DNA from: Candidatus Margulisiibacteriota bacterium | GTDB taxonomy: Bacteria > Margulisbacteria > WOR-1 > XYC2-FULL-46-14 > JAHJBW01 | Length of the DNA stretch: 27,507 bases | Assembly (NCBI GenBank): GCA_018813405.1 | Contig: JAHJBW010000082.1 | Coordinates: forward strand, 1 to 27,507 | Reading direction: 5' to 3' | Part shown: one piece after another, positions 7,821 through 14,421 of the stretch | Layout of the letters: every line of letters begins with the position of its first letter | Numbering within the stretch: the stretch's first letter is position 1 | Made by a program: the position numbers and the translations under genes | The notes under the pieces: generated by a model | The model's input: the letters and a program-made list of their open reading frames with translations, nothing else | What the model was told of the DNA's origin: nothing | Database searches by the model: none

Positions 7821-8207
7821 ATGCCAAAGATACTGGTTGTTGACGATAATGCGGACATGATCGAACTGATGAAGACCCGGTTTGAAATGAAAGGCTTTGA
7901 TACCAGGATCGCCACCGACGGCGAAGAAGCCTGGAAGATCATCAAAGAATCCTCTCCCGATGTGGTGCTGGCGGATCACAATCTCCCTGGTATCAGCGGT
8001 TCCCAGCTGTGTGAAAAGATCAAGAACGATCCCAAACTGAAGAATATCGTGGTCATTCTGGCTTCCGCCAGTGTGGCGGACGAGATCGGCAGTATTTCCC
8101 GCCGGGTATCCGCCGACGACTACATTGCCAAAGGCGTGGATAATTTTGATTCGCTCTTTACCAAGGTGACCAACCTGCTCAAACAAAAAGGGAAAATGCC
8201 TTCCTAG
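7821..8207 (+). CDS. Single-domain (CheY-like) response regulator
   Basis: KILVVDDN, PDVVLADHNLPGISG (phospho-Asp), ILAS, ADDYIAK; no output domain. Confidence 0.92.
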   Translation: MPKILVVDDNADMIELMKTRFEMKGFDTRIATDGEEAWKIIKESSPDVVLADHNLPGISGSQLCEKIKNDPKLKNIVVILASASVADEIGSISRRVSADDYIAKGVDNFDSLFTKVTNLLKQKGKMPS

Positions 8208-10456
8208 TCGATCCCCAGGTTCTTAAGCGCCTCGAATGATGCGGTAATGCGACGGGCTTTGTTGTCCCCTTCCGGCTTTGATACCAGTCCCTCGGCCTCT
8301 ATTTCATCCATTAACCTTGCCGCGCGGTTGTAGCCTATGCGCATCTTTCTCTGCAGATAGGAAGTGGAAGCTATCTGGCTTTCCATGATAAGTTTGACCG
8401 CCTGATTAAAAAGGTCATCCCTGCCGTCTTTTGCCTTTTCCTCTTTAGAGTCGGTCTCCAGCGAAGACAGGGTCTGCACCTCGGCAATTCTTTCTTCGTA
8501 TTCGGGAGCCGCTTGCTTTTTGATGAACTTGATCACCCTTTCGGCCTCTGGATCAGTAACAAAGCATCCCTGCAGCCTTGTCGCTTTCATGGCGCCAACA
8601 GGGTTGTAGAGCATATCGCCCCGTCCCAACAGCTTCTCGGCGCCCGAAGAGTCGATTATAACGCGCGAGTCTATCTGTGTGGCCACGGCAAAAGCGATCC
8701 TGGAAGGGATGTTCGCCTTGATAAGCCCGGTGATTACATCGACAGAAGGCCTCTGCGTGGCAATAACAAGGTGTATGCCCGTGGCGCGCGCCATTTGCGC
8801 CAGCCGGCAAATGGTGGTCTCAACCTCTGCGGCGGCAATCATCATAAGGTCGGCCAGCTCGTCGACAATTACCACCAGTTGAGGCATTTTTTCTTGAGGC
8901 TCGACGCGCTTATTATACGAAGCCAGATTGCGCACGCCGACCTTATAGAATATCTGATAGCGCCGTTCCATCTCGCGCATAACCCACTCTTTTAGGGTCA
9001 GGGCGGCAGAGCGCGGTTCGGTAACCACGGGAGCAAGAAGATGAGGAATGCCGTCATAAAGTGTAAGCTCAACCATCTTCGGATCGATCATGATGAACTT
9101 GACCTCATCTGGTTTGGCGCGGTAAAGAATGCTCATTATCAAAGAATTGATGCACACACTCTTTCCCGAGCCGGTCGTGCCGGCTATCAATAAATGCGGC
9201 ATTTTTGCCAGGTCACCGTAGATCGGAGAGCCGGACAGGTCTTTGCCCAGCGCGATGAAAAGTTTGGAGGAGTTGTTTTTAAACTCGTTTTGTTTGATGA
9301 TGTCCTTGAGTCTGACCGTAGTAATAGTGGTGTTGGGGACTTCAATTCCAATAACGGCCTTGCCGGGAACGGGCGCTTCAATACGCACGCCGCCCGAGGC
9401 CAGGTTGAGGGCAATGTCATCCGCCAGGTTGGCGATCTTGCTGACCTTGACCCCGGGATCAGGCTGGAGCTCAAAGCGTGTGACAGCCGGACCCTGGTTG
9501 ACAGAAACGACCCGCGCGCCCACTCCAAAACTTGCCAGGACTTCTTCCAACAATTTCTTTCGCAGGTCGGTGGTTTCCTGCATCTTGGCGGCTTTTTTGA
9601 TCTCTTGCTTGGTCCTGTCTTCCAGCAGGTTCAAGGGTGGTAATTTGTAATCGGCGTAAGACTGGTGGCTTCGAGTGGCGTCAATATCTTCGACCACAAT
9701 AGTGGTCGACTCCTCCTCTTCCACATCCTCGGCATCCGTTTTCTCTTCTTCCATATGCTGAGGAAGGGGGAAGCTAACTACCGGTTTTCTTTCGACTTCA
9801 GACTTCTTTTCCTCTACCGGTCGCGTATCATCCTCTCCCTCATCCTCACCTTCTATTTCTGCCGGCGTTTTTCTAAGGCGTATCTTTCTTTCTTTTCTTT
9901 CAACAGCTTGAGGGAACAGGAAGGACGCCAGGAAAGAAAGCAATCCGCGGAAAGTAAGATTGGAGACCAACAGCAGTCCGATAAAACATACAGCCGACAA
10001 AATAATATAAGACCCTACCGGGCCCAGCACCCTTTCAAGAGAAAACCTGAACCCATAGCCAATCAAACCACCCGCCCCCTGAAGGAAGTAGTACTGTTCC
10101 ACGGGAGCAAAGTAGGAGCTGGAATAAAATTGGGCAAAGGTAATAAAATCAAGGAATAGCACGAGCAGTCCTACCAATCTTATGGCCAGTTCTCTGACCT
10201 CGTGCCTTAACAGCATGATGACCCCGTAGGAAGCGACAAAGAAGGGCAGTAGATAAACGCCTATCCCCATCACCGCCCGGAAAAAGGTCTTGACCAAATA
10301 CAGGCCAACTATGCCGGTGGATGAGGACAGGTTAGAAATAAAAATGAATATGCCCAGGGCGATCAGCAGAATTCCGCCTATGTCCTGCTTGAAATGGGAA
10401 AATTCCCAACCGGGCTTTTCATCATCAGTAGTAGTATTGGACTTTTTCCTGGCCAC
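8204..10456 (-). CDS. ftsK: DNA translocase FtsK/SpoIIIE
   Basis: N-terminal TM helices; GPAVTRFEL, HLLIAGTTGSGKS, IVDELADLM, HLVIATQRPSVDV, gamma domain IGYNRAARL. Confidence 0.97.
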   Translation of the reverse strand: MARKKSNTTTDDEKPGWEFSHFKQDIGGILLIALGIFIFISNLSSSTGIVGLYLVKTFFRAVMGIGVYLLPFFVASYGVIMLLRHEVRELAIRLVGLLVLFLDFITFAQFYSSSYFAPVEQYYFLQGAGGLIGYGFRFSLERVLGPVGSYIILSAVCFIGLLLVSNLTFRGLLSFLASFLFPQAVERKERKIRLRKTPAEIEGEDEGEDDTRPVEEKKSEVERKPVVSFPLPQHMEEEKTDAEDVEEEESTTIVVEDIDATRSHQSYADYKLPPLNLLEDRTKQEIKKAAKMQETTDLRKKLLEEVLASFGVGARVVSVNQGPAVTRFELQPDPGVKVSKIANLADDIALNLASGGVRIEAPVPGKAVIGIEVPNTTITTVRLKDIIKQNEFKNNSSKLFIALGKDLSGSPIYGDLAKMPHLLIAGTTGSGKSVCINSLIMSILYRAKPDEVKFIMIDPKMVELTLYDGIPHLLAPVVTEPRSAALTLKEWVMREMERRYQIFYKVGVRNLASYNKRVEPQEKMPQLVVIVDELADLMMIAAAEVETTICRLAQMARATGIHLVIATQRPSVDVITGLIKANIPSRIAFAVATQIDSRVIIDSSGAEKLLGRGDMLYNPVGAMKATRLQGCFVTDPEAERVIKFIKKQAAPEYEERIAEVQTLSSLETDSKEEKAKDGRDDLFNQAVKLIMESQIASTSYLQRKMRIGYNRAARLMDEIEAEGLVSKPEGDNKARRITASFEALKNLGID

Positions 10457-10495
10457 GTTGCGATTATAGCAAAATAAGCCGGGAAAACAAATACC

Positions 10496-10525
10496 CTGAA
10501 ATTATCTTATCCTGACTTCGATAAT
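10496..10525 (+). promoter_or_regulatory. Candidate sigma28-like promoter motif, copy 1
   Basis: CTGAAATT-N16-GATAAT, which reads as GAAA-N15-TTCGATAA, 6 nt before ATG 10531. Confidence 0.4.
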
Positions 10526-10530
10526 ATATT

Positions 10531-11271
10531 ATGAGAGTCGCCGGCGAATCCTATATCCGCCCTTTTTCATTCTTTCAACGTTTCCATGCGCTCCGCCACG
10601 TTCTTCGCGCTTCTGACAGATTTTTGAAAGGAAGGCCGGACGCCAGCCTGCCAGAGGATTGTATTTGGGATGTCACAAAGTGCGATCCGCATACAAAGAA
10701 ATTATTCCTGCCGAGATCAAATCGGGAAGGATTAGTGAAACTTTTGGGTTCAGCGCGACTCGCCGAAATAGCTGAATCCGCATCCATGCATCTGGCATAT
10801 AACGCGGAGCATGTTGCACCCTATCCAGTATTGACTTCATATTGTATCGTGGATAATCATCTTGTTGTCCAGACGCGTGACCTTGGGCAGGGCCTTGAAA
10901 GCTATCTTCTCCGCCCGGGACTTCCATATTCAACCCGGCCTTATTCAATAATGCTCCGTTTGCATCAAGAACAACAAGGCAATGGCATCATGCTTACGAT
11001 GAACCAAGTTTTGAATGGCTGTTCCGGGTCAATGGCAATAGAATCTTCTGGCCAAAAGATCCGCCTGCGCAATTATCGCGGGGAGATCGTGGCACAGAGG
11101 ATCTTTGGGTCCAAGATCATCGGGACCAGGTTTTTATTGTTCCTTCCCCTTCTGGCGGAATGGCACGCGGAAGAGCAGGGAGATGACCATTTTCATATGC
11201 CAGCCATGCTAAAAATACGCTTTCTGCCTGATCTGAAAATGCGTTTCTGGCATATCTGGAGCGTTGATTAA
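10531..11271 (+). CDS. Orphan protein with a GHKL/HATPase_c-like domain and no DHp domain
   Basis: N-box HLAYNAEH, G1 VVQTRDLGQG, F-box-like LPYST, G2 QGNGIML, terminal GTRFLLFLP; about 75-aa unrecognised N-terminal region. Confidence 0.65.
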   Translation: MRVAGESYIRPFSFFQRFHALRHVLRASDRFLKGRPDASLPEDCIWDVTKCDPHTKKLFLPRSNREGLVKLLGSARLAEIAESASMHLAYNAEHVAPYPVLTSYCIVDNHLVVQTRDLGQGLESYLLRPGLPYSTRPYSIMLRLHQEQQGNGIMLTMNQVLNGCSGSMAIESSGQKIRLRNYRGEIVAQRIFGSKIIGTRFLLFLPLLAEWHAEEQGDDHFHMPAMLKIRFLPDLKMRFWHIWSVD

Positions 11272-11277
11272 AATTAG

Positions 11278-11307
11278 CTGAAATTTTTTGGAAGAGTGGC
11301 AGATAAC
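11278..11307 (+). promoter_or_regulatory. Candidate sigma28-like promoter motif, copy 2
   Basis: CTGAAATT-N16-GATAAC, which reads as GAAA-N15-GCAGATAA (7/8 match to GCCGATAA). Confidence 0.45.
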
Positions 11308-11429
11308 TAACTGAGAAGGCATAGGCGGTTGGGAAGCACGAGAAGTAGCCAAGCCTATGTTCAATATAGGAGCGAAACTGCGATGACCTTCAGTAATATG
11401 AGGGTGAGTTATCCGGAGCTCTTAGTTAG
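11302..11429 (+). ncRNA. Unassigned structured leader/intergenic RNA candidate
   Basis: Complementary segments: CATAGGC(11320-26)/GCCTATG(11353-59) extended by GGTT/AGCC; ACCTTCA(11386-92)/TGAGGGT(11399-405); CTAACTGAGA(11307-16)/TCTTAGTTAG(11420-29); GATAACT(11302-08)/AGTTATC(11407-13). Confidence 0.35.
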
Positions 11430-11463
11430 AAAGAATTTTATAGATAATGGGAGGGGTAATTAA
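11383..11463 (+). CDS. Putative 26-aa upstream ORF (MTFSNMRVSYPELLVRKNFIDNGRGN)
   Basis: AGGAG at 11368-11372, 10 nt before the ATG; its TAA lies 1 nt before the ATG of the next gene. Confidence 0.3.
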   Translation: MTFSNMRVSYPELLVRKNFIDNGRGN

Positions 11464-11464
11464 T

Positions 11465-13090
11465 ATGGGATTTTTTACAAGAGTGGTTAAGCATAGTCCG
11501 CAGCTAACAACTTATGCTCAGGCTAAGCTTGGCGGGACCGGCCTATCAAAATTAAGACGAGTTCACCATCATTCAGGCTCAGATAAGATCGCGCAAGAGA
11601 AGCTAGCGTCGGCATTAAAACAATTGCCATGTTCCACCTTAGCCCGTTTGCGTGAAATGCAAAGCTCAGGCATATCCGATGGAGATTTCTACAGCGAGGA
11701 AGTTAGACCTGCTTTATTAAATGTCAACAGATATGGAGACAACGAAGTTGAGCATCTCCCTGTAAAAGACTTTCTTTCTCTTACCCCACATGTTCCTCAT
11801 CCCGAAGCCAAGGCAGGGGGAAGATGGGAGCAGGACCAAGTATTAATTCACGATACAGATGAGTTGGTTGAGGTTGCAGACGAGGGGGCGCAAATAATAT
11901 CTAATGGCCAATGCGCCATGGGAATTCCCGCTGCCGGAGTCGCTTCTCGCGCCGCCGATATTTTCCGCTCACGCGAAGACTTGGTTGGAATTATGACCTA
12001 TTTGATGGGGTACCTGGAAGGATTAAATGGACTATCAGAAAACACCTATCCTCCTCGGTTTCTTTATCCGGTTGCCTCAACACGTGGCATAATGACCTTG
12101 TTAGGGATGATGCTTGAAAACTTGCATATTGTTGGCACAGAACTTGGGACCGTAATTCCATCGTTACTAATGCTTCACCCTAACATGTCTGAATTTGTTT
12201 TAGCAAAACTTGCTGATCATATCAAAAAATGGGGGCCAGATTGGCAAGAAAGCATTCTTCTCTGGGCACAATCTATGTCCCAACGGTACTATTTAACTGA
12301 TCAACAACCTTTAAAAGATCTCTTCCCAAATGGTCATGGAGAACATCCTCGCATGCTGGCAGAACTAGACATGTTTAATTTCCTGAGAAGTAAGGGGATT
12401 AATTATTATTTCTTTGCCAACGCCGATGAAATTGTATTTGGTCCCAATCCAATCCTCGCTGGCGTTGCTGGACGATTGATCCAAATGGGTTACGCTCAGG
12501 TTGTTTTTGTAGTGGATAATCCGACAAATCAGGGTGGAGGCGGCCCCGTCCGGCACATTACCGTTCCCGAAAATACGCATCTTATCGAAAATCCAAGCAT
12601 GCCCACAAGCTTCATCACAGGTGGCAAATATCCGCGTTGCATTAACACACTTTCCATTGTTGGTTCTACCGATAAACTTGCTCAGGTAAGCCCTGGGCTG
12701 GCGGCCAAAACCACTTTGCTTTTAGAAGCCAAGGTTTGGGAAGGCAGAAATGGAGGGGTCGAGCTGATAGCCAGCGCAGAGGGACATGCGGGAACTGAAT
12801 TGACCAATCCCCACGGCAGAGATGCGGGGAGTTACAGGAATGCGTTTGTCTACGTCAACCGTCCTGGCTTTTTCATGGGCATCAAAACCCCGGCGCACGT
12901 CTATGATGGAAGCACTCCTCCAGAGCTTTTAGCTGACCCTATCTTCGGGCGAATGTCCTATGCCACCTATACGCGGCATATGTTTAACACCTTTCCAGCA
13001 ATATTGCGCGGCATGATCGAGCGCGATCGATCTGTTTTAGAACAAATTTTTAAGCGCGGAGGTAGCTATCTGCTTCCCATTGATGACTGA
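11465..13090 (+). CDS. Divergent UDPGP-family nucleotidyltransferase (UDP-sugar pyrophosphorylase-like) with an N-terminal extension
   Basis: Motifs in the order found in UGPase/UAP: IPAAGVASR, YPPRFLYPV, LFPNGHGE, YYFFANADE, NQGGGG, HLIENP, INTLSI, ELIASAEG, FFMGIK. GGAGGGG SD at 11449-11455 supports ATG 11465 over 11447. Confidence 0.6.
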   Translation: MGFFTRVVKHSPQLTTYAQAKLGGTGLSKLRRVHHHSGSDKIAQEKLASALKQLPCSTLARLREMQSSGISDGDFYSEEVRPALLNVNRYGDNEVEHLPVKDFLSLTPHVPHPEAKAGGRWEQDQVLIHDTDELVEVADEGAQIISNGQCAMGIPAAGVASRAADIFRSREDLVGIMTYLMGYLEGLNGLSENTYPPRFLYPVASTRGIMTLLGMMLENLHIVGTELGTVIPSLLMLHPNMSEFVLAKLADHIKKWGPDWQESILLWAQSMSQRYYLTDQQPLKDLFPNGHGEHPRMLAELDMFNFLRSKGINYYFFANADEIVFGPNPILAGVAGRLIQMGYAQVVFVVDNPTNQGGGGPVRHITVPENTHLIENPSMPTSFITGGKYPRCINTLSIVGSTDKLAQVSPGLAAKTTLLLEAKVWEGRNGGVELIASAEGHAGTELTNPHGRDAGSYRNAFVYVNRPGFFMGIKTPAHVYDGSTPPELLADPIFGRMSYATYTRHMFNTFPAILRGMIERDRSVLEQIFKRGGSYLLPIDD

Positions 13091-13129
13091 ACAAATCACA
13101 AAGCTATTTTGGTTTCACAATGAGTCGTT

Positions 13130-13159
13130 TTGACAACCGCTTCTCCTGCGCGCTATAAT
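13130..13159 (+). promoter_or_regulatory. Sigma70-type promoter of the leuC-leuD-archease-MgtC-miaA unit
   Basis: TTGACA (13130-13135), 18 nt, TATAAT (13154-13159), 8 nt, ATG 13168; no SD. Confidence 0.75.
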
Positions 13160-13167
13160 CAATCCAT

Positions 13168-14421
13168 ATGGGAAAAACCATCGCAGAAAAGATCCTCTCC
13201 AACCACAGCGGCAAGGACGCGCATGCCGGTGATATTGTCATAGCCGACCTGGATTTTATGATCGGCCAGGACGGGACCTCGGGCGTGGCCATTGATTCCT
13301 TCCGCAAAATGTCCGCCAAGAAAGTGGCCGATCCTTCCAAAATCGCCATAATAATTGACCACTCCTCCCCTTCTCCCAACCAGGGGGTTTCGGCTATCCA
13401 CAAAAAGATCCGCGAGTTCGCCGCCGAGCAAAAGATAAAACTCTACGATATCGGTTGCGGCGTGTGCCACCAGATCACCCCGGAGCAGGGCCATTGCGTC
13501 CCCGGCGACCTGGTCATCGGCGCGGATTCTCACACCTGCACCTACGGCGCGATCAATGTTTTCTCAACAGGCATCGGGTCAACCGACCTGGCGGCGGGCA
13601 TGATATCGGGCAAACTCTGGTTCAAAGTACCGGAAACGCTCAAGGTGGTATATAAAGGAAAACTTCCGAAAGGAATATACTCGAAAGATCTTATACTTAA
13701 CCTGATCGGCAAGATCGGCGCGGACGGCGCCACCTATATGGCACTTGAAATAGATGGAGATGCCATCAACGAAATGTCGGTCGATGCCCGCTTTACCATT
13801 TCTAACATGGCCATAGAGTGCGGCGCCAAATGCGGCATCATGAAAGCGGACAAAAAGGTGATGGATTGGGTGGCCAAACATTCCAAACGCAAGCCGGGCC
13901 CGATCGAAGCGGACAAGGATGCAAAATACAAACAAGTCATCGAGATCGACGCCGCCAAACTCGAGCCGCAGATCGCCAAACCGCATACAGTGGATAACAC
14001 CTGCGGGGTTTCCGAGGTTGTTGGCACCCCGATCCAACAAGGTTTCATTGGAACCTGCACAAACGGGCGGCTGGAAGATTTCCAGATCGCGGCAAATATC
14101 TTGAAGGGCAAAAAAGTGGCGGACGGCTGCCGCTTGATCATTGCCCCGGCTTCAAAAGACATTATGCTGGACATGATAAAAGACGGCGCTTATCAAACGC
14201 TGGTAGAAGCAGGCGCGGTAGCGGTAACCCCAGGCTGTGGCCCCTGTGTGGGAACGCACAACGGCGTGCCGTCTGACGGTGAAAATGTGATCTCAACCGC
14301 TAACCGCAATTTCAAAGGCAGGATGGGCAACCCCAACTCGTTTATCTATCTCGCTTCGCCAGCCACAGTGGCGGCTTCGGTAATAGAGGGGAAGATCGCG
14401 GATCCGAGGAAATACCTATGA
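13168..14421 (+). CDS. leuC: 3-isopropylmalate dehydratase/homoaconitase family large subunit (short HacA-like type)
   Basis: MGKTIAEKIL, IIDH, GADSHTCTYGA, [4Fe-4S] ligands GTCTNGR and PGCGPCVG, STANRNFKGRMG; 417 aa. Confidence 0.88.
   Translation: MGKTIAEKILSNHSGKDAHAGDIVIADLDFMIGQDGTSGVAIDSFRKMSAKKVADPSKIAIIIDHSSPSPNQGVSAIHKKIREFAAEQKIKLYDIGCGVCHQITPEQGHCVPGDLVIGADSHTCTYGAINVFSTGIGSTDLAAGMISGKLWFKVPETLKVVYKGKLPKGIYSKDLILNLIGKIGADGATYMALEIDGDAINEMSVDARFTISNMAIECGAKCGIMKADKKVMDWVAKHSKRKPGPIEADKDAKYKQVIEIDAAKLEPQIAKPHTVDNTCGVSEVVGTPIQQGFIGTCTNGRLEDFQIAANILKGKKVADGCRLIIAPASKDIMLDMIKDGAYQTLVEAGAVAVTPGCGPCVGTHNGVPSDGENVISTANRNFKGRMGNPNSFIYLASPATVAASVIEGKIADPRKYL

Follow-up and report, generated by a model that had tools for sequence, protein, structure and literature searches.

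We analysed a 27,507-nucleotide stretch of DNA (contig JAHJBW010000082.1, C231 of our numbering; "the window" below means this whole stretch) from a Candidatus Margulisiibacteriota bacterium. Its genome assembly, GCA_018813405.1, comprises 1.69 Mb in 253 contigs, with a GC content of 48.8% and a completeness of 89.6%. The organism falls in the Saganbacteria, an uncultured sister lineage of Cyanobacteria. In the window, the interval between ftsK and leuC is filled by two open reading frames (ORFs) on the plus strand: gene 1 (P0001; 10531-11271, 246 amino acids) and gene 2 (11465-13090, 541 amino acids counted from the ATG at 11465). Each is preceded, on the same strand, by the same bipartite sequence. 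Ahead of gene 1 (10497-10524) a -35 element TGAAAT at 10497-10502 is followed by a -10 element CGATAA at 10519-10524; ahead of gene 2 (11279-11306) TGAAAT occupies 11279-11284 and the -10 variant AGATAA 11301-11306. Both are exact matches to the pattern, and the second begins 7 nt past the stop codon of gene 1. As a whole, our results are probably best explained by promoters of the sigma-28 class, belonging to a global regulon shared throughout the bacterial class, which drive two genes with cytoplasmic-type products.

A first-pass annotation of the window had pointed to CTGAAATT-N16-GATAA ahead of both genes. The window contains two matches to this pattern and no more, at 10496-10524 and 11278-11306, each on the plus strand; none of 100 shuffled versions of the window contains one. 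The genome-wide scan that the annotation had proposed revealed clear enrichment. TGAAAT and CGATAA are separated by a spacer of 16 nt in 49 exact copies, while each of the 21 other spacings in the range 8-29 gave no more than two (0-2 copies). Chance pairing of the two window motifs is ruled out by these genome-wide counts. The 106 seed sites yielded the consensus gTGAAATTTT-N12-CGATAA; the spacer is uninformative and the motif is therefore not a repeat element. When the weight matrix was iterated, 131 sites scored at least 14 bits, compared with six in the reversed-sequence control. Of the 131 sites, 114 fall outside our crude ORF calls, which account for 83% of the genome, and for 124 sites a co-oriented ORF starts at most 300 nt downstream. 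The -10 box is CGATAA or CGATAT in 79 of 131 sites, and AGATAA, found ahead of gene 2, is the third commonest variant (8 of 131). The seed patterns themselves fixed G, A, T and A; the C ahead of GATA occurs in 86 of the 106 seed sites. Both window sites are mid-rank members of the set, with scores of 25.4 for gene 1 (rank 82 of 131) and 25.1 for gene 2 (rank 85 of 131).

Sequences immediately following the motif indicate where transcription would begin. Relative to CGATAA, position +6 is a pyrimidine in 89 of the 106 seed sites and position +7 a purine in 93, and such a pyrimidine-purine step is the classical -1/+1 signature of a start site. An ATG is placed exactly at +7 in 17 sites, where about two would be expected by our own estimate (131 sites x 1/64). 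Forty of the 124 downstream ORFs have their start codon no more than 3 nt from the predicted start site and would be leaderless; longer leaders precede 72 ORFs, 51 of which have a Shine-Dalgarno-like sequence. In the window, the predicted start sites are 10531 for gene 1 and about 11313 for gene 2. The former is the A of the gene 1 ATG, so the gene 1 mRNA would be leaderless. The gene 2 mRNA would carry a leader of about 152 nt (11313-11464, plus strand) with a strong Shine-Dalgarno sequence, GGGAGGGG, at 11449-11456. Genes 1 and 2 would accordingly form separate transcription units, each with its own FliA/SigD/WhiG-type promoter and each starting 7 nt past its -10 box.

The translation starts deserve a closer look. 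For gene 2, the ATG at 11465, located 8 nt after GGGAGGGG, is the most likely start (an alternative ORF start lies at 11447), and it replaces position 11466, which had been given before. Public gene calls begin gene 1 at the GTG at 10735, after the Shine-Dalgarno-like GGAAGGA, which yields a protein of 178 amino acids, 68 codons short. Because homologues align from residue 15-25 and an ATG sits at the predicted +1, the 246-amino-acid form appears to be the real one, and leaderless genes are probably mis-called systematically in this lineage. In homologues of gene 2 the leaders measure merely about 35-50 nt, and the leader of about 152 nt is absent there. The gene 2 leader does not fold significantly better than shuffled sequences (z = -1.42; 23 of 200 shuffles fold as well), which leaves a structured RNA in it unsupported.

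It could be argued that the motif is no promoter at all but a repeat element or the operator of a transcription factor, as it is a conserved bipartite sequence and its promoter role is read from sequence only. Yet neither the spacer nor the flanks are conserved, hence it is no mobile repeat. Moreover, the motif points towards the downstream gene, keeps a fixed distance to leaderless start codons and is followed by the start-site signature described above. It is extremely improbable that a repeat or an operator accounts for the motif.

Which sigma factor would read such a promoter? In Escherichia coli, Salmonella and Bacillus subtilis, the class-3 flagellar promoters of sigma-28 (FliA/SigD/WhiG) follow the consensus TAAA-N15-GCCGATAA. 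The motif described here, written as GAAA-N17-CGATAA, has the identical register. The -10 core CGATAA is common to both, AAA lies 17 nt from CGATAA in both, both are rigid in spacing, and both show a T-rich extension past the -35 element (TAAAGTTT against GAAATTTT). They differ at the opening of the -35 element, which is G here and T in the known class.

Sigma-70 promoters are present in the same genome and allow direct comparison. As the first-pass annotation had stated for neighbouring housekeeping genes, leuC has a perfect canonical TTGACA-N18-TATAAT (13130-13159, plus strand), in contrast to the sigma-28-type sites upstream. Genome-wide, TTGACA is paired with TATAAT in 7, 8 and 5 copies at spacers of 16, 17 and 18 nt, respectively, while TGAAAT with TATAAT and TTGACA with CGATAA occur at most twice at any spacer. 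The half-sites pair only within their own set; the genome accordingly has two distinct classes of promoter, of rigid and of flexible spacing. This bears on the possibility that the motif represents the housekeeping promoter in a form peculiar to the lineage, gTGAAA-N18-GATAAt, read by the primary sigma factor RpoD. Exact copies of the motif (49) do outnumber exact copies of TTGACA-N16-18-TATAAT (20), housekeeping genes are found among the regulon members, and the gene 1 promoter also resembles a sigma-70 promoter weakly (9 of 12 positions matched), which at the same time counts against its assignment to sigma-28. However, C and G are invariant where sigma-70 requires T-12, A or T stands at the position corresponding to T-7, the spacing is absolutely rigid, unlike that of the sigma-70 class of the same genome, and half-sites of the two sets never mix. 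Recognition by RpoD is thus quite unlikely.

The genome encodes five sigma factors of the sigma-70 family: RpoD, one extracytoplasmic function (ECF) sigma, a 246-amino-acid FliA/WhiG-type sigma, a 200-amino-acid FliA-like sigma and a near-copy of the latter. Sigma factors of the fliA/whiG type, for which the first-pass annotation had advised to look, are therefore present. The 246-amino-acid protein, encoded on contig C59, finds its best family in TIGR02479 (FliA/WhiG, E = 4.9e-42), and its gene adjoins flgB, flgC, fliE, fliF and fliI; the gene of the 200-amino-acid protein lies directly downstream of flhA. As in known systems, FliA-family sigma factors are encoded inside flagellar gene clusters. 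The two copies of the small FliA-like sigma, on contigs C28 (L004, 202-804) and C110 (L005, 3-506), clearly resemble each other without being identical; they represent either genuine paralogues or variants of different strains merged into a single bin.

The single ECF sigma, whose gene is on contig C12, offers another candidate reader, as its promoters would likewise have a rigid -35/-10 spacing and a -10 box that contains CG. Promoters of the ECF type, such as that of B. subtilis SigW (TGAAAC-N16-CGTA), resemble the -35 half of the motif. The -10 box CGATAA is nevertheless a sigma-28 signature, not CGTA or CGTC, and the motif is conserved class-wide alongside FliA-like sigmas. In addition, no motif was seen at the ECF gene, while ECF regulons are usually small and autoregulated. 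We consider this candidate highly unlikely.

By its sequence, the promoter appears to be of the sigma-28 class, and the reader of the roughly 130 promoters would most likely be one of the two FliA/WhiG-like sigmas from the flagellar-type clusters. Several further points weigh against this assignment. The GC dinucleotide of GCCGATAA ahead of CGATAA is not conserved here. The 246-amino-acid sigma reaches 144 bits, compared with an NCBIfam curated cut-off of 189.6, and the FliA-like sigmas are all below the cut-off. Both the start sites and the dependence on sigma are deduced from the DNA alone.

Next to its abundance in one genome, the motif is widely conserved. Exact copies number from 4 to 74 in each of 41 genomes of the Saganbacteria class, versus 0-2 in the reversed control, and all 41 genomes give a match to a FliA/WhiG-type sigma. 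Other classes of the phylum mostly have fewer copies (most families 0-20), many still above the control. One family outside the class, f33, has 73, 32 and 25 exact copies in genomes G077, G089 and G115, respectively. Conservation extends to the loci of the two genes. Six of seven loci of gene 2 homologues, from other families of the class, have TGAAAT-N16-CGATAT 35-50 nt before the start codon. The gene 1 homologue in genome G034 is preceded by the motif, with a GTG exactly at +7. Among the homologues in metagenomic contigs, that of L114 has its ATG at +10, 3 nt past the predicted start, and that of L115 a leader of 35 nt. Judged by these comparisons, the gene 1 and gene 2 families both appear to be conserved members of the regulon.

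What else does the regulon contain? All 124 downstream ORFs were scanned against Pfam in two batches, in which 45 and 50 families were matched. Roughly half of the ORFs or more have no Pfam match at 1e-4 (our own estimate from the family counts), and paralogy among them is minimal. Regulators are represented by four Ser/Thr kinases, RpoD, an RpoN DNA-binding domain and two RelA/SpoT proteins, nucleic-acid enzymes by topoisomerase I (topA) and a DEAD helicase, and metabolic enzymes by DXP synthase (dxs), QueD, aminotransferases, adenosine deaminase and radical-SAM enzymes. Glycoside hydrolases of families GH8, GH94 and GH116 are also present, as are SLT, YkuD, solute-binding and MFS proteins and an ADP-ribosylglycohydrolase. 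At least five regulon proteins have classical Sec or lipoprotein signal peptides. Since rpoD and the gene with the sigma-54 DNA-binding domain are themselves motif-driven (L093, G000:C174:2623-3657), as are the RelA/SpoT proteins and the kinases, the regulon stands high in the regulatory hierarchy.

The regulon is global and mixed, not an effector set; it would span regulators and housekeeping genes, envelope and sugar enzymes, and many orphans specific to the lineage. An alternative-sigma, sigma-28-like regulon scattered over the genome, as had been suspected from the two window motifs, is borne out by the motif statistics, the FliA/WhiG-type sigmas and the flagellar-type export apparatus described below. 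One motif-driven orphan of 249 amino acids (MSIKISRYKPTNG...; L075, 1-747, G000:C115) has a weak match, below the cut-off (E = 0.0034), to Tox-ART-HYD1, an ADP-ribosyltransferase toxin domain; an ADP-ribosylglycohydrolase, as listed above, also belongs to the regulon.

Of the two window proteins, that of gene 2 is the easier to classify. As a single sequence it matches Pfam family UDPGP (PF01704) only at E = 0.017 and 14.3 bits, below the cut-off of 22. A profile built from eight gene 2 homologues, however, matches solved UTP-glucose-1-phosphate uridylyltransferases in the PDB at E = 7.7e-10 over 260 residues. The AlphaFold2 (AF2) model of gene 2 has a predicted local distance difference test (pLDDT) value of 84.6 and a predicted template modelling (pTM) score of 0.88. 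When this model was compared by Foldseek, the 50 best PDB matches were all UAP1/AGX/UGPase structures (E down to 4.7e-16, probability 1.0), with alignments spanning about 430-520 columns. Gene 2 is thus modelled as a divergent eukaryote-type UDP-sugar pyrophosphorylase (UDPGP/UAP1/UGPase) fold, and its product would most likely be a cytoplasmic nucleotidyltransferase of this kind.

It shares with the UDPGP family (UAP1/AGX, UGPase) the whole three-domain fold, and GHGD and N-x-D-E/N type motifs are also seen in the alignment of gene 2 homologues. The identity is merely 12-17%, and the nucleotide-binding loop is AG-x-x-SRA in gene 2, not GG-x-GT-R/x-x-G. The N-terminal part of gene 2, formerly regarded as an unassigned extension, turned out in the Foldseek alignments to be the normal N-terminal domain of the UAP/UGPase fold.

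Gene 1 belongs to an orphan family. It has no match in Pfam or NCBIfam, a word-index search for homologues returned only its own truncated gene call, and only 11 related clusters were found at E <= 1e-10 among 1.84 billion representatives. The profile of the family finds no match in the PDB, and an AF2 model from a two-sequence alignment was unusable (pLDDT 36.8). A feature search of the Atlas gave a value of 0.96 (198 of 256 features shared) to clusters annotated as HATPase_c or "anti-sigma regulatory factor (Ser/Thr kinase)", and the family conserves H-x3-NAEH-x-AP, RD-x-G-x-G-x-G, GNG, NQ-x-L-x-GC-x-G, ES and GT.

Gene 1 can be compared with the GHKL anti-sigma-factor serine kinases of the RsbW/SpoIIAB type (HATPase_c). 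Like them, it is small and lacks a histidine phosphoacceptor domain, and its family has an N-box-like NAEH, a G1-like D-x-G-x-G and a G2-like GNG. It exceeds them in length by about 80-100 residues, has a conserved N-terminal region and lacks the hidden Markov model or PDB profile match of a GHKL kinase. The likeness is a lead, not a proof. It comes from a language-model search and motifs read by eye, and the null results with Pfam, NCBIfam and PDB profiles and the failed AF2 model count against it. With this reservation, the product of gene 1, most likely cytoplasmic, may be a GHKL-type ATPase or kinase-like regulator.

Relatives of the two genes recur as neighbours. In G034 the gene after the gene 1 homologue has its own motif and is UDPGP-like according to the Atlas (0.89; L030, 3-1415, minus strand); the stop codon TGA of the gene 1 homologue there forms the first three bases of the next TGAAAT. 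In L114 (2161-5613) the gene 1 homologue is followed by a gene of 982 amino acids with a GT5 domain and by a gene with UDPGP and Hexapep_UGP3_C domains, the latter again with its own motif. This recurrence suggests a small sugar-nucleotide module that would be switched on with the rest of the regulon, and a functional pairing of the gene 1 and gene 2 families is plausible. Two results speak against the pairing. The G034 neighbour is UDPGP-like by the Atlas lead only, and hhalign found no relationship between it and the gene 2 family (probability 0.4). A PDB sequence search of this neighbour returned nothing meaningful.

Are the two proteins exported? The first-pass annotation had viewed them as effector-like enzymes of a sigma-28 secreted-protein regulon, exported by the flagellar type III apparatus by means of a shared basic FFxR N-terminus. 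Sigma-28-dependent non-flagellar proteins whose export uses the type III secretion system of the flagellum are exemplified by the FspA/Cia type of Campylobacter. Genes for the export apparatus, which the annotation had recommended to search for, were indeed found, in two clusters. The first (L007, G000:C28, 202-9907) comprises flhA, flhB, fliR, fliQ, fliP, fliN, fliM, a 266-amino-acid FlgE/F/G-like gene and a FliK-like gene, followed by the 200-amino-acid FliA-like sigma. The second (L008, G000:C59, 3454-13644) comprises flgG, flgA, flgH, flgI, the 246-amino-acid FliA-like sigma, flgB, flgC, fliE, fliF and fliI. The genome thus possesses a flagellar-type export gate, rod, rings, ATPase and FliK-like gene. 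Flagellin, FliG_C, MotA, FliS and FlgM were searched for in the same genome and not found, as the export model would favour.

The same pattern holds across the class: FlhA is present in 39 of 41 genomes and Flagellin_N above the cut-off in only one of 41, with FliG_C in three and MotA in five. FliG_C and MotA lie side by side in three class genomes, in at least one of them (G021) on the flhA contig, and these three genomes show no flagellin either. This is a warning that a divergent filament protein could escape detection. The only Flagellin_N matches of our genome, sub-threshold at E of about 0.006-0.01, come from a motif-driven coiled-coil protein of 1240 amino acids (L077, 1-3720, G000:C119) that also has intermediate-filament and crescentin-like matches. 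An Atlas search of a 1056-amino-acid regulon protein with a flagellin-like N-terminus (MGITINSQ...) gave nothing informative.

Further support for export might be seen in the N-termini. Those of regulon proteins have an excess of R, P, N, Q, T and S and a shortage of D, E, L and V, the second residue is most often Ser, and many regulon proteins begin with MSIKI, MSITI or MGITIN; neither window protein has a Sec signal. However, the background for this composition is a crude ORF set with uncertain starts. The shared FFxR N-terminus itself did not survive scrutiny: among the first 25 residues, FF.R was found in 2 of 105 regulon proteins versus 7 of 1180 background ORFs, and neither protein has homologues that conserve it. 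The UAP/UGPase fold of gene 2 is complete and has the N-terminus as one of its integral parts, gene 1 resembles a GHKL kinase, and such folds, putative in the case of gene 1, are usual for cytoplasmic enzymes or regulators. The mixed regulon, which takes in rpoD, rpoN, topA and dxs, aminotransferases and proteins that carry classical signal peptides, also argues against a set of secreted effectors. In common with the Campylobacter case there is a sigma-28-type promoter before non-flagellar genes and a flagellar export apparatus in the genome; no N-terminal feature is common to the window proteins, and their folds would be of cytoplasmic type. Export of the two enzymes is accordingly very improbable.

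A broader version of the idea concerns other regulon members. In it, the class would have a flagellum-derived apparatus mostly devoid of filament and motor, with gate, rod, L/P rings and a FliK-like ruler kept; the FliA-type sigma would have turned into a global regulator that controls about 130 promoters per genome, and a subset of orphan regulon proteins, with N-termini rich in Ser, Thr, Asn, Pro and Arg and poor in acidic residues, would be the cargo. We regard this as rather unlikely. If it were true, the "flagellum" would be a dedicated secretion or cell-contact organelle tied to a developmental or lifestyle switch. For the two window genes, we retain sigma-28-class promoters driving cytoplasmic-type products.

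The surroundings of the two genes differ from them in GC at third codon positions. The left neighbour, ftsK, occupies 8204-10456 on the minus strand, and the right neighbour, leuC, 13168-14421. An AT-richer insert had been described between them. This holds for third codon positions, where GC is low in both genes: 0.43 in gene 2 (4th percentile) and 0.494 in gene 1 (11th percentile), against 0.60-0.66 in ftsK and leuC. For the region as a whole it does not, as GC of 10490-13100 is 0.466, only the 17th percentile among windows of the genome. As a group, regulon genes have a third-position GC of 0.53, versus 0.57 for the rest (Mann-Whitney p = 7e-8).

No homologue of FtsK, gene 1 or gene 2 was detected upstream of leuC in 12 genomes belonging to the same order; the sequence covered was 1.5 kb for the 10 loci reaching that far. 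The leuC neighbourhood is not conserved within the order, and insertion of the two genes is therefore neither shown nor excluded by synteny. In one relative of this order (L118, G001:C73) a different ORF of 416 amino acids upstream of leuC bears the motif at 186-213, and in several other relatives the neighbours there are a gene like that of RNase III and another, conserved one of about 350 amino acids. A search of sequencing runs recovered the locus in DNA metagenomes only (groundwater and biofilm), and none of it in two RNA runs of the same study.

To our knowledge, nothing is known about transcription in Saganbacteria. A literature search returned no paper that substantively links Saganbacteria with sigma factors or flagella, and none that describes the regulon. 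One rigid motif predicts about 130 transcription starts per genome, throughout the class, and defines a large co-regulated set rich in orphans. It also suggests that a flagellar-type sigma can persist in the role of global regulator in genomes whose filament and motor genes mostly escape detection. In practice, the motif should be useful for reading metatranscriptomes, for annotating leaderless genes and for probing the role of the reduced flagellar apparatus.

In comparison with the known class of sigma-28 promoters, the system described here is larger and differently composed. It has about 130 sites in 1.7 Mb, versus a few dozen in known systems; none of its targets was recognisable as a late flagellar gene (flagellin, motAB, che); and many targets are predicted to be leaderless, unlike those of the known class. 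A global role of FliA has been described for Bdellovibrio bacteriovorus, in whose attack phase 92 of 140 mapped promoters have TTAAG-N16-CCGATA (Karunker et al. 2013, PMC3627812). FliA was inferred there to be a global regulator (PMC3627812), and the regulon of Saganbacteria would be analogous to this FliA-driven attack-phase programme. Bdellovibrio has flagella and its start sites come from experimental mapping, while ours are predicted from sequence; it is also unrelated to the present lineage, sister to Cyanobacteria, in which most genomes show no flagellin or motor genes. In both, nevertheless, a sigma-28-like motif precedes a very large and functionally mixed set of genes, and by this analogy the global FliA regulon of Bdellovibrio appears to be the closest precedent.

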